Assembly: GCF_050920415.1 (NCBI RefSeq)
Contig: NZ_CP169309.1
DNA: 64,000 nt
Reading direction: 5' to 3' (one strand)
Source of the DNA: Escherichia coli
GTDB taxonomy: Bacteria > Pseudomonadota > Gammaproteobacteria > Enterobacterales > Enterobacteriaceae
The position numbers were made by a program, and so were the translations under genes. The first letter of the stretch is position 1, and each line of letters starts with the position of its first letter. The notes beneath the pieces are model-generated. The model saw only the letters and a list, made by a program, of their open reading frames with translations. It made no database searches and was not told where the DNA came from. This document shows positions 20,450 through 26,813 of this stretch, one piece after another.

Positions 20450-21013
20450 ATGAAACTCAAACATGTCGGAATGATTGTCGTATCTGTGTTGGCGATGTCT
20501 TCGGCTGCGGTTAACGCTGCCGAAGGTGATGAGTCAGTTACTACCACCGTTAATGGCGGTGTTATTCATTTTAAAGGTGAAGTGGTAAATGCCGCTTGTG
20601 CGATTGACTCAGAATCAATGAACCAAACGGTTGAACTGGGTCAGGTCCGTTCTTCTCGCCTGGCTAAAGCGGGTGACCTCAGTAGCGCTGTAGGCTTCAA
20701 TATCAAGCTGAATGATTGTGATACCAATGTTTCCAGTAATGCGGCTGTTGCATTCCTGGGGACTACTGTCACCAGTAATGACGATACGCTGGCGCTTCAG
20801 AGTTCAGCGGCAGGCTCTGCCCAGAATGTCGGTATCCAAATTTTGGACCGTACGGGGGAGGTATTAATACTGGATGGGGCAACTTTTAGCGCTAAAACTG
20901 ACTTGATTGATGGCACGAATATACTGCCATTCCAGGCTCGTTATATTGCCCTCGGGCAGTCAGTGGCCGGTACTGCAAATGCAGATGCGACCTTCAAAGT
21001 CCAATACCTATAA
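20450..21013 (+). CDS. Fimbrial major subunit (type 1/F9-like pilin)
   Basis: 187 aa from the internal ATG ([23 protein letters not shown] signal peptide); pilin disulfide cysteines; first gene of a chaperone-usher operon. Confidence 0.85.
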
Positions 21014-21374
21014 TTCAGTATTCAGGTGGCTATGCGTCATCTGAAATTAAAACAGGGTGTGTGTGGCATGGCTACTCACACCCGAAAAAATTCATCAATG
21101 TTTATCTCATTATTACTAAGGAATGACTTATATTTTGGAACGATATGAAAAAATCATAGAGTATCTAAACGATTAATAAACAAGGCAGTTAAAATTACTG
21201 TGATTTTAAAAATCACTCTGAAGACAATTTTTTATTTCAATAGAGAACCAAGTTTTATTACCAGCGCATTAAGTCTGGAAACCCGGCCATCCGCTATAGC
21301 ATTAGCAATATTTACCATTTTCTGATGTGACGGTTTCCCCCGCTTAGCCTATCAACACATGGAGAACACATCAG

Positions 21375-22085
21375 ATGCAGACGACTCGTACGCCCTACTC
21401 TGTTTCTTTTATGGCGACAGTATTACTTTCATTGGTCTTTCTTTGCCATAGTACCATTGCCAATGCAGCGGTAGCTCTAGGTGCAACTCGTGTAATCTTT
21501 CCAGCAAATCAGAAACAGGTTTTATTGCCTGTCACGAATAATGATCCTGCCAGTGTCTATCTTATTCAGTCATGGATAGAAAATGCGGGTGACCAAAAAG
21601 ATACCCAGTTTGTCATTACCCCACCGCTTTTTTCTATGCAAGGCAAAAAAGAGAATACGCTGCGGATTATCAACGCCACTAATCATCAGTTACCGGGCGA
21701 CCGGGAAAGCCTGTTTTGGGTAAATGTCAAAGCTATTCCTGCTATGGAAAAAGATCAGAAAAATGCAAATACATTACAGCTCGCAATTATTAGCCGCATA
21801 AAAATGTTCTATCGCCCAACGAATTTGGCAATGGCACCTGACCAAGCTCCGGAAATGCTTCGTTTCCGCCGCAGTGGTAGCAAACTGACACTTATTAATC
21901 CGACCCCCTACTTCATTACCGTAACGAATATGAAAGCAGGAAATAGCGATCTCCCAAACACCATGGTGCCTCCAAAAGGTGAGATTTCTGTGGATTTCCC
22001 TCACGGTGCATCCGGGGATATCAGCTTTCAGACGATCAATGATTACGGTGCATTAACACCGCGTATTAAGGCAACCATGCAGTAA
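21375..22085 (+). CDS. Periplasmic fimbrial chaperone (PapD/FimC family)
   Basis: 236 aa; signal peptide and chaperone-type sequence; sits between pilin and usher. Confidence 0.85.
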   Translation: MQTTRTPYSVSFMATVLLSLVFLCHSTIANAAVALGATRVIFPANQKQVLLPVTNNDPASVYLIQSWIENAGDQKDTQFVITPPLFSMQGKKENTLRIINATNHQLPGDRESLFWVNVKAIPAMEKDQKNANTLQLAIISRIKMFYRPTNLAMAPDQAPEMLRFRRSGSKLTLINPTPYFITVTNMKAGNSDLPNTMVPPKGEISVDFPHGASGDISFQTINDYGALTPRIKATMQ

Positions 22086-22128
22086 CAACTGACCTAATTA
22101 ATAAGCATAAACTCAATCGGAACTAATA

Positions 22129-25324: not shown

Positions 25325-25336
25325 TCAGAGTGAGAT

Positions 25337-25840
25337 ATGAATAGAACTTTCCAAAGACTTCTGTTGGCTACGCTCTGTGCGCTATTTTCAGCAACTCTCC
25401 AGGCCGCTGATGTCACTATCACTGTTAATGGTCGGGTAGTTGCTAAACCCTGCACTATTCAAACCAAAGAAGCTAGCGTTAATCTCGGGGATCTTTATAC
25501 ACGCAATCTGCAACAACCAGGTTCTGCATCTGGCTGGCACGATATTACTTTGTCATTAACCGATTGTCCGATTGAAACAAGTGCAGTGACGGCAATCGTA
25601 ACAGGTTCAATTGACAATACGGGTTATTACAAAAATGAAGGTAGTGCCGAAAATATTCAGATAGAGCTGAGGGATGATCAGGAGGCGACGTTAAAAAGTG
25701 GCGATAGCAAAACGGTTATTGTTGATGAGATCACACGTAATGCACAGTTTCCACTTAAGGCAAGAGCTATCACGGTGAATGGAAACGCAAGCCAGGGAAC
25801 GATCGAGGCGCTAATCAATGTGATCTATACCTGGCAATAA
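25337..25840 (+). CDS. ydeR: Fimbrial minor subunit
   Basis: 167 aa; signal peptide; pilin-like; size and order match ydeR. Confidence 0.8.
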   Translation: MNRTFQRLLLATLCALFSATLQAADVTITVNGRVVAKPCTIQTKEASVNLGDLYTRNLQQPGSASGWHDITLSLTDCPIETSAVTAIVTGSIDNTGYYKNEGSAENIQIELRDDQEATLKSGDSKTVIVDEITRNAQFPLKARAITVNGNASQGTIEALINVIYTWQ

Positions 25841-25898
25841 CATCGATTCGATTTTATAAGCCTCTTTTTTAAATCAATTTTTAACCTAAGGATTTATC

Positions 25899-26813
25899 AT
25901 GGGAAAAAAAATTAGTATAAATGTCCTGTTCAGTATTTATTTTCTTTTGATGGCAGGTAAAGTCTTCGCCTTCAGTTGTAATGTTGATGGTGGGTCAAGT
26001 ATTGGCGCAGGTACAACTTCTGTGTATGTTAATCTCGATCCTGTCATTCAACCAGGTCAGAATCTGGTTGTAGATTTGTCTCAGCATATAAGTTGCTGGA
26101 ATGATTACGGCGGCTGGTACGACACAGATCATATTAACTTAGTACAAGGCTCAGCTTTCGCAGGCTCCCTACAGTCATATAAAGGATCGCTGTACTGGAA
26201 TAATGTGACCTACCCCTTTCCGTTGACGACAAATACCAACGTGCTGGATATTGGTGATAAGACACCGATGCCCTTACCGTTAAAACTCTATATTACCCCT
26301 GTCGGGGCGGCCGGTGGCGTTGTCATAAACGCGGGAGAAGTTATTGCTCGCATTCATATGTATAAAATTGCAACGTTAGGAAGTGGAAATCCGCGTAACT
26401 TTACATGGAATATTATTTCAAATAACAGTGTTGTTATGCCAACGGGCGGCTGTACCGTTGATAGTCGTAATGTCACAGTGAGTCTCCCGGACTTTCCTGG
26501 AAGCGCAGAAATACCCTTGGGCGTATATTGCTCAAGTGAGCAAAAGCTCTCATTTTATCTTTCGGGCGCTACCACTGACAGTGCCCGACAAGTGTTTGCT
26601 AATACAGCACCTGACGCAACAAAAGCATCAGGAGTCGGTGTCTCCCTGATGCGTAATGGAAAAATACTGGCTACGGGAGAAAATGTCTCCCTGGGAACTG
26701 TAAATAAAAGCAAAGTACCCCTGGGCTTAAGTGCAACTTATGGACAGACAGGAAGCAAGGTCGCAGCTGGAGCAGTACAGTCAGTCATTGGCGTTACATT
26801 TATCTATGAATAA
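25899..26813 (+). CDS. ydeQ: Fimbrial tip adhesin (FimH-like two-domain adhesin)
   Basis: 304 aa; signal peptide; last gene of the operon; size matches ydeQ. Confidence 0.8.

Follow-up and report, generated by a model that had tools for sequence, protein, structure and literature searches.

An intact F9 (Fml/Yde) chaperone–usher fimbrial operon of Escherichia coli, almost certainly in the allele typical of cryptic clade I

Which fimbrial system is encoded by the six co-oriented ORFs at 20450–26813 on the plus strand of the window (the whole 64,000-nt stretch of E. coli DNA analysed here), and is the system complete? The ORFs encode, in order, a major pilin, a chaperone, an usher, two minor subunits and a tip adhesin. 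The region is almost certainly the chromosomal F9 (Fml/Yde) chaperone–usher fimbrial operon of E. coli, with its six genes intact and in an allele characteristic of cryptic clade I of Escherichia. The F9/Fml operon is already known, has been the subject of detailed study and is already present in the RefSeq annotation. It corresponds to Z2200–Z2206 in O157:H7, c1931–c1936 in CFT073 and fml in UTI89, with which the copy in the window has in common the chromosomal site, the six-gene order and the gene lengths. It differs from them by ~9% at the nucleotide level, by 7–9% in the amino-acid sequences of the chaperone, usher, YdeS and YdeR, by a different island directly upstream and by a K120N change in the lectin domain of the adhesin.

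The first five proteins matched NCBIfam families with E-values from 1e-51 to 1e-297, far beyond chance, and end-to-end matches to PDB structures were obtained for FimA, FimC, FimD and FmlH/FimH. All six genes have the lengths of their counterparts in O157 Xuzhou21 and lack internal stops. The initial annotation had described a complete six-gene F9-like operon with every gene intact; the ORFs, family matches and gene lengths bear this out, and alignment to O157 revealed no truncating mutation in any subunit. The operon lies in the interval between hipBA and ydeP (hipA at 11827–13188; ydeP at 27162–29441, NCBIfam YdeP, 1822 bits), and the layout of hipA, the operon, ydeP, safA and ydeO agrees with the annotated O157 operon and with K-12. 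Both its flanks and its gene order are those described for f9 (PMC3966885). The operon was assigned to F9/Yde/Fml because of this position, the gene order, the gene lengths and the identity of the adhesin with FmlH. None of the observations speaks against this assignment.

The proposed correspondence to ydeQRST is likewise confirmed, as the site and gene order are the same as in O157 and, as expected, the remnant in K-12 corresponds to the 3' portion of the operon. The K-12-type locus contains ydeS, ydeR and ydeQ together with the 3' 1,227 nt of the usher gene (pseudogene ydeT), collinear with the window at 89–93% nucleotide identity, in agreement with the initial annotation, according to which K-12 retains only the distal part with a truncated usher. 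It lacks the sequence equivalent to 20272–23553, a loss that takes away the pilin and chaperone genes along with 475 codons of the usher and the greater part of the leader; it therefore cannot assemble pili. Upstream, only 20067–20271 has been kept in K-12, a piece that includes the promoter and extends ~74 nt into the leader.

The major pilin (F9 major subunit; 20450–21013, plus strand, 187 aa; NCBIfam PRK15194, E = 3e-51) contains a signal peptide and an N-terminal donor strand. Its ORF is open from 20393, and the RefSeq start is the ATG at 20450. The protein matches FimA structures over its full length, its N-terminal extension aligning with that of FimA; judging from cysteine pairs and N-termini, the pilins have one disulfide each and a donor strand at the N-terminus. 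The sole amino-acid difference from O157 is N22S, in the signal peptide, and the mature pilin is identical to that of O157 despite ~41 nucleotide differences (7.4% of nucleotides; dN/dS 0.02). Across six sampled E. coli genomes, the pilin protein was invariant, with nucleotide differences of up to 2.7%.

Folding revealed two RNA hairpins, lacking a T-tract, directly 3' of the pilin stop (21021–21083, plus strand; −32.5 kcal/mol, z −5.5, with none of 200 shuffles as good). The 361-nt spacer between the pilin and chaperone genes differs from that of O157 at four places in its first ~80 nt (three substitutions and one deletion), the remainder being ~80% identical. In O157, the second hairpin is fully kept and the first lacks two pairs. 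The hairpins may act as a 3' stabiliser or as a partial barrier to transcription, and would probably raise the output of pilin relative to the downstream genes. No convincing or canonical intrinsic terminator was found on the plus strand downstream of either the pilin gene or the adhesin gene: the 147 nt following ydeQ contained only a weak fold (z −1.9), and a strong hairpin at 27049–27072 was discarded as a plus-strand terminator, its T-tract being on the minus strand. A decayed fimI within the spacer was also considered and rejected, as tblastn with three pilins gave E-values of at least 1.8, expected by chance, and stops occur throughout the six frames. Rfam searches covering the entire window at gathering thresholds, the leader and the post-pilin hairpins included, retrieved no known RNA family.

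The periplasmic chaperone (21375–22085, plus strand, 236 aa) is FimC-like (NCBIfam PRK15195, E = 8e-76). It aligns with FimC residues 2–204, and the motifs LGATRVI and NVKAIP, which hold Arg8 and Lys112, are conserved. These two residues are known from established work on PapD and FimC to anchor the subunits. The outer-membrane usher (22129–24780, plus strand, 883 aa) is full length, of equal length to the O157 protein and 93.4% identical to it in amino acids. Its residues 42–883 align with FimD 2–833 without large gaps, an alignment spanning the N-terminal domain, the pore, the plug and both C-terminal domains. The usher scored 989.5 bits with its best NCBIfam equivalog, PRK15193, for which the curated cut-off is 995; we attribute this shortfall to a divergent allele and not to damage. 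The two minor subunits are YdeS (24794–25324, plus strand, 176 aa; annotated ydeS), a FimF-like adaptor retrieved with the NCBIfam FimF model (233.8 bits), and YdeR (25337–25840, plus strand, 167 aa; annotated ydeR), a FimG-like adaptor retrieved with the FimG model (248.9 bits). Their amino-acid identities to O157 are 92.7% and 91.1%, respectively, and the dN/dS of ydeR is 0.30. Three subunits of the operon carry the RefSeq names FimA, FimF and FimG, which are misleading at an F9 locus and could lead automated surveys to overcount type 1 fimbriae.

The tip adhesin YdeQ (25899–26813, plus strand, 304 aa) is FmlH, as established by its match to the solved protein. It has two domains and no donor strand, and starts at F1 of the lectin domain; structure alignment placed the lectin domain at 25971–26450 and the pilin domain at 26451–26810. 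The lectin domain is identical to solved FmlH (PDB 6AOW and related entries) at 159 of 160 residues, the sole change being K120N, and nonsynonymous changes are outnumbered by synonymous ones in this domain (1 versus 33). All the ligand-contact residues, F1, Y46, D53, K132, N140 and R142 (PMC5866590), are kept. The adhesin would be expected to bind terminal beta-galactosides, namely Gal-beta1-3-GalNAc (TF antigen) and Gal-beta1-3-GlcNAc. K120N is located in a loop that aligns with the FimH insertion loop, at the interdomain interface; if FmlH is allosteric, the change could modulate that behaviour in clade I. Given so similar a lectin domain, the inhibitors and vaccine antigens published for FmlH should be applicable in clade I strains as well.

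The sequence preceding the pilin gene is AT-rich, with a G+C content of 0.29–0.31 over 20000–20450 versus 0.42–0.50 within the genes. Homology to the upstream region of O157 and K-12 begins at ~20067–20082, and the f9 regulatory region with its 5' leader occupies 20082–20449 (plus strand, ~30% G+C). An AT-rich region of ~450 bp had been put forward in the initial annotation as the likely regulatory region. Its composition was as described, but only ~370 bp (20082–20449) is homologous to the sequence preceding f9 in other E. coli; its regulatory nature agrees with the promoter and H-NS data from CFT073 (PMC3966885), and the same −35/−10 pair is present. Upstream of ~20082 (~−116) there is an island unrelated to O157 or K-12 sequence, and this replacement could alter regulation. 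Only weak repeat matches were obtained with Pfam for the two island proteins, NCBIfam being more informative for the LRR protein.

A sigma-70-type promoter (20162–20191, plus strand) was detected by pattern scan and homology to CFT073, and consists of TAGACG, an 18-nt spacer and CATAAT. In CFT073, the f9 transcription start was mapped to 251 nt before the ATG, and the promoter has a −10 element CATAAT, a −35 element TAGTCG and an 18-bp spacer (PMC3966885). The −35 hexamer of the window thus has one change (TAGACG vs TAGTCG), whereas the −10 hexamer and the spacing are equal. By homology, the G at 20198 is the probable transcription start, and the leader would then be ~252 nt long. Direct reading of the sequence also revealed a 21-nt direct repeat, ATGTTATTTGG(TC/CG)ATATAAAA, on the plus strand. 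Its upstream copy is located at 20085–20105 (~−113 to −93 from the probable start) and its downstream copy, identical at 19 of 21 positions, at 20201–20221 (~+3 to +23); both copies have one inverted partner in common. The positions of the two copies coincide with H-NS motifs predicted in CFT073 at −111 and −103 and at +8 and +14, respectively (PMC3966885), and H-NS may bind at both repeats. In CFT073, H-NS binds the AT-rich stretch of f9 and silences the operon at 37 °C, and pili are therefore produced at ~20 °C; in wild-type strains, F9 is undetectable at 37 °C (PMC3966885).

By analogy with the closely related type 1 system, F9 subunits would be exported by Sec, capped by the FimC-like chaperone through donor-strand complementation and polymerised through donor-strand exchange at the FimD-like usher, the adhesin being assembled first, followed by the FimG-like YdeR, the FimF-like YdeS and many copies of the major pilin. 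Transcription would proceed from the sigma-70 promoter in the AT-rich stretch, ~250 nt upstream of the pilin gene, and H-NS would be expected to control the operon in the source strain as it does in CFT073.

Among 5,426 complete E. coli genomes, 3,644 contained at least 80% of the operon length, presence being defined as one place covering at least that fraction. At the DNA level, the allele of the window has only ~91% identity to the version found in almost all E. coli, and an operon identity of at least 99% was found in only 18 of the 5,426 genomes, a source-like record at 100% included. EC42405 and 2013C-4282, both listed as complete cryptic clade I genomes (PMC10100065), are among the 18, and three of the 18 are 98–99% identical to the window over 19–24 kb. 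The flanks are ~96% identical to typical E. coli. In five genes, dN/dS relative to O157 is 0.02–0.09, and selection, as estimated from these ratios, is strongly purifying.

There is next to no chance that the operon encodes type 1 (fim) fimbriae, as the FimA, FimF and FimG product names in the RefSeq records would suggest. The type 1 system (fimAICDFGH) has the same gamma-1 chaperone–usher architecture, each protein of the operon aligns over its full length with its Fim counterpart, Fim structures included, and the cut-offs of three NCBIfam equivalogs are exceeded (FimA, 173.9 against 140; FimF, 233.8 against 200; FimG, 248.9 against 220). However, the chaperone and FimD models remain below theirs (254 vs 327 and 856 vs 975), and the adhesin scores 359 bits over the 160-residue FmlH lectin domain vs 273 bits over full-length FimH. 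Its pocket has K132 and R142, as in FmlH, where FimH has Q133 and F142. Moreover, fimI is not present, the 361-nt spacer having stops in all frames and no similarity to pilins; neither a recombinase gene nor conserved flanking inverted repeats were found; and the locus adjoins ydeP, which is the F9 site (PMC3966885). A fimS-like invertible switch was searched for and dismissed: the inverted repeats were short and AT-rich, one arm was outside the O157-conserved block, and no recombinase (fimB/fimE) was annotated or seen upstream. The two systems also differ in ligand, F9 binding galactosides through a wide pocket (K132, R142) and type 1 fimbriae binding mannose (PMC5866590), in control, with H-NS silencing at 37 °C for F9 (PMC3966885) and phase switching by inversion for type 1, and in locus.

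With the operon identified as F9, the history and activity of this allele have to be weighed. Synonymous divergence from E. coli sensu stricto (dS) is 0.34–0.51 in five of the six genes and 0.17–0.19 in the adjacent ydeP, and identity steps sharply at the ydeP boundary, as would be expected if a working F9 allele had been gained by old recombination from another Escherichia lineage and not inherited vertically within clade I. Nevertheless, weakly expressed, H-NS-silenced genes commonly have higher synonymous rates, and those of the 18 allele-bearing genomes that were examined also match the flanks at 98–99%. The dS of ydeR is only 0.16, making the operon a mosaic. No copy of the adhesin was found in other Escherichia species in a scan of one genome per species by exact words, which may miss diverged copies, and f9 has been reported only in E. 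coli and Shigella (PMC3966885). Acquisition from another lineage is unlikely. The sole locus retrieved by the species scan came from a MAG bearing the label Candidatus Nanosynbacter, on a contig resembling E. coli; its adhesin is identical to the K-12-type protein, the contig is presumably a contamination, and the locus says nothing about where the allele came from. Less probable still is that the frames are intact in a silent relic that is never expressed, its upstream context having been replaced by the island. The failure to see F9 at 37 °C in wild-type strains (PMC3966885) and the unrelated sequence upstream of ~20082 would fit such a relic, and the operon is dispensable, given that about one-third of complete E. 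coli genomes have no single place covering at least 80% of it. Against this, purifying selection has been strong across ~9% nucleotide divergence, the other genomes of clade I type that were examined also have an intact operon, and the promoter hexamers, predicted H-NS sites and leader all belong to the retained block.

The F9 operon of the window is apparently functional, as its sequence suggests. F9/Fml pili contribute to biofilm formation at low temperature (PMC3966885), to the binding of plant xyloglucan (PMC7766294), through FmlH to chronic urinary tract infection (PMC5866590) and, according to work cited in PMC3966885, to colonisation of the calf gut by O157. Given these roles, an intact copy adds one plausible colonisation factor to what is probably a strain of cryptic clade I, which is reported as an emerging source of intestinal pathogens (PMC10100065). 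Beyond correct annotation, its significance is small.

It is noticeable that the surface-exposed, ligand-facing parts of the pilus are frozen in this allele, while the proteins of the assembly machinery and the adaptor subunits have drifted by 7–9%. Divergence at synonymous sites is about double that in the flanks. In host-exposed pili such as type 1, the major subunit is variable, and the F9 pattern in clade I reverses this. A frozen pilin and lectin domain with drifted machinery would be in keeping with a pilus whose receptor is conserved and not of host origin (e.g. plant or environmental glycans at low temperature) and that is under no antibody pressure, with K120N separately tuning any FmlH allostery; we offer this reading tentatively and consider it rather doubtful.

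The locus encodes, on the plus strand, a major pilin (20450-21013, 187 aa), a chaperone (21375-22085, 236 aa), an usher (22129-24780, 883 aa), the FimF-like minor subunit YdeS (24794-25324, 176 aa), the FimG-like minor subunit YdeR (25337-25840, 167 aa) and the tip adhesin YdeQ, or FmlH (25899-26813, 304 aa), separated, in that order, by spacers of 361, 43, 13, 12 and 58 nt. Each gene has an ATG start and a TAA stop. A longer pilin frame from 20393 also exists, and the start at 20450 is the one used by RefSeq and the O157 orthologue. The pilin, chaperone, usher, FimF-like and FimG-like proteins were retrieved with their NCBIfam families (E-values 3e-51 to 1e-297). 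In structure alignments, the pilin matched FimA end to end, including the N-terminal donor strand, the chaperone aligned to FimC residues 2-204, the usher alignment covered FimD residues 2-833 (all domains), and the adhesin aligned end to end with both FmlH and FimH. Reading frames, family matches and structure alignments thus bear out the six co-oriented, intact fimbrial genes of the initial annotation; no subunit carries a truncating mutation, as lengths are identical to those of O157 Xuzhou21 in six of six genes, with no internal stops.

The described f9 operon site has ydeP 3', hipBA 5' and a variable stretch immediately upstream (PMC3966885). The locus in the window is this site, with ydeP on one side and hipA on the other. 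Three genomes, NZ_CP169399.1 (100% match), O157 Xuzhou21 and one of K-12 type, have ydeP, safA, ydeO and ydeN downstream and hipA on the opposite side. All sequence-testable defining features of the F9/Fml/Yde operon are present, and the initial interpretation as this operon is supported. The product names in RefSeq, 'type 1 fimbrial major subunit FimA', 'FimF' and 'FimG', stem from NCBIfam equivalog models whose cut-offs these F9 paralogues exceed. A type 1 fim operon was rejected, as its three defining features that were tested (FimH, fimI and the fimB/E/S switch) are lacking. FimH aligns along the whole adhesin, but its pocket residues differ, which rules out a mannose adhesin. No ORF or trace of a pilin gene was found in the 361-nt pilin–chaperone spacer, and therefore there is no fimI counterpart. 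There is no recombinase gene, no promoter-flanking inverted repeats conserved with O157 were found, and an inversion switch at the f9 promoter is absent.

The first ~80 nt of the pilin–chaperone spacer contain two hairpins (21021-21045 and 21055-21083). This stretch has a fold energy of -32.5 kcal/mol (z -5.5), and none of 200 shuffled sequences was equally stable. It is nearly identical in O157, where the second hairpin is fully preserved and the first has two fewer pairs, whereas the remaining spacer is ~80% identical. No T-tract follows the hairpins, so they are not a canonical terminator. We infer by analogy that they are candidates for a 3' stabiliser or partial barrier favouring pilin over downstream products, as described in other chaperone–usher operons.

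The AT-rich upstream stretch, proposed as a regulatory region of about 450 bp, was confirmed, with 29-31% G+C over 20000-20450 against 42-50% within the genes. Homology to the O157 and K-12 upstream regions starts at ~20067-20082. A pattern scan detected a plus-strand promoter at 20162-20191 (TAGACG, 18 nt, CATAAT). The mapped f9 promoter of CFT073 is TAGTCG, 18 bp, CATAAT, with transcription starting at a G 251 nt 5' of the ATG (PMC3966885). By homology, the G at 20198, 252 nt 5' of the pilin ATG, is the probable start in the window. Two copies of a 21-nt direct repeat (19 of 21 positions identical) at 20085-20105 and 20201-20221, about -113 to -93 and +3 to +23, coincide with the H-NS motifs predicted for CFT073 f9 at -111, -103, +8 and +14 (PMC3966885). 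H-NS binding and low-temperature f9 expression were shown in CFT073 (PMC3966885); for the operon in the window, we can only infer them by analogy.

The operon is already known, annotated and common. Of 5,426 complete E. coli genomes, 5,340 contain the region by megablast, essentially in single copy and chromosomal throughout. At least 80% of the operon was covered at one place in 3,644 of the 5,426 (67%), a count of coverage that does not by itself prove intact reading frames, and which agrees with the published figure for reference collections, 60-61% (PMC3966885). The K-12-type locus matches the window at 20067-20271 and resumes at 23554, and hence lacks 20272-23553, that is, most of the leader, the pilin and chaperone genes and the first 475 usher codons, while retaining the f9 promoter. 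The initial annotation was correct that K-12 keeps only the distal part, with a truncated usher. The additions to knowledge are modest: a clade I allele, and a frozen pilin and lectin domain.

The operon is ~91% identical to that of nearly all E. coli (5,294 records at 90-95%), and only 18 records reach at least 99%. These include EC42405 and 2013C-4282, completely sequenced cryptic clade I strains (PMC10100065). In three of the 18 genomes, the upstream island and the genes downstream likewise match the window (98-99% over 19-24 kb). Elsewhere in the window, gadC, gadB and dosC are ~96% identical to typical E. coli. Given this allele and these three genes, the window most likely derives from a clade I strain. 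It differs from NZ_CP169399.1 at five positions in 18.5 kb, none in the operon. Homopolymer indels separate the two sequences at two sites: A6 in the window against A7 at 20064, upstream of the f9 region, and A5 against A4 at 30575 in ydeO (29962-30723). The latter gene is intact in the window (253 aa; NCBIfam YdeO, 595 bits) and annotated as frameshifted in NZ_CP169399.1; the frameshift may be a genuine variant or a sequencing artefact.

Residues 1-160, the mature lectin domain, share 159 of 160 positions with the crystallised F9 pilus adhesin FmlH (6AOW and ten further entries). F1, Y46, D53, K132, N140 and R142, published as terminal-galactose contacts and inhibitor hot spots of FmlH (PMC5866590), are all kept, and the three binding loops are unaltered. 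The sole change, K120N, aligns outside these loops; it is common to other genomes with the rare operon allele and absent from O157 and K-12. Compared with O157, the domain has one nonsynonymous and 33 synonymous changes. The pilin differs from that of O157 by ~41 nucleotides and a single residue, N22S; this change lies within the signal peptide and leaves the mature pilins the same. Within E. coli sensu stricto, six of six sampled genomes share one pilin protein accession, with nucleotide differences of at most 2.7%. Between the two lineages, protein divergence is 7-9% for the chaperone, usher and adaptors. Values of dN/dS against O157 are 0.02 (pilin), 0.06 (chaperone), 0.09 (usher and ydeS), 0.30 (ydeR) and 0.04 (adhesin). 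These low ratios, with the frozen lectin domain and pilin, argue that the operon is maintained by selection and that the exposed parts of the pilus are free of diversifying pressure.

Synonymous divergence is 0.34-0.51 in five of the six operon genes, roughly double the 0.17-0.19 of neighbouring ydeP, and identity steps sharply at the ydeP boundary. This excess could possibly reflect a weak constraint on codons in an AT-rich, silenced operon, flanks that have been homogenised, or old recombination. A one-genome-per-species scan by exact peptide words did not find the adhesin in other Escherichia species. A YdeQ with no differences from the K-12-type protein is encoded on a 13-kb contig (JARKOR010000108.1) of a metagenome-assembled genome labelled Candidatus Nanosynbacter; the contig is almost certainly a bin contaminant from E. 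coli. The ydeO–ydeN spacer (30576-31169) has the lowest identity to O157 (71-84%) in the aligned 12 kb.

Between hipA and the f9 regulatory region lies a 6.8-kb island (13311-20081) that is not in O157 or K-12. Only six of 5,426 complete genomes cover at least 80% of it, parts being present in other genomes with the rare operon allele, and its contents include remnants of IS2, IS481, HTH and alpha/beta-hydrolase genes. The 535-aa product of a minus-strand gene (15044-16651; RefSeq hypothetical) contains about twelve leucine-rich repeats (LRRs) of the LPxLPxGL type, each of 20 residues, along with (SKT)x6 and (PSRP)x3 runs. Its NCBIfam matches to the type III effectors SspH2 (E 1e-58) and SlrP (E 8e-51) are confined to their LRR part and lie far under the cut-offs. 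No NEL ubiquitin-ligase domain follows the repeats, and the product may be an effector-like protein, either truncated or novel. Adjoining this gene, a plus-strand gene (17344-19308) encodes an ankyrin-repeat protein of 654 aa (Pfam Ank_2, E 1.9e-5) that matched no NCBIfam family. The side-by-side arrangement of two eukaryote-like repeat proteins suggests putative secreted effectors.

In the ydeQ–ydeP spacer, ATCCTACACCTGTAAGAA (26893-26910) is invariant in five of five aligned sequences and is flanked by a conserved inverted repeat, GCGGAT...ATCCGC; it may resemble the inverted repeat that forms the EvgA box in the ydeP promoter. A hairpin with a perfect 10-bp stem (ATGAGAGTAG CCCC CTACTCTCAT, 27049-27072) lies 90 nt upstream of ydeP. 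Its T-tract is confined to the minus strand, and there are no convergent genes at this site. O157 and K-12 retain the hairpin in part, their stems being shorter.
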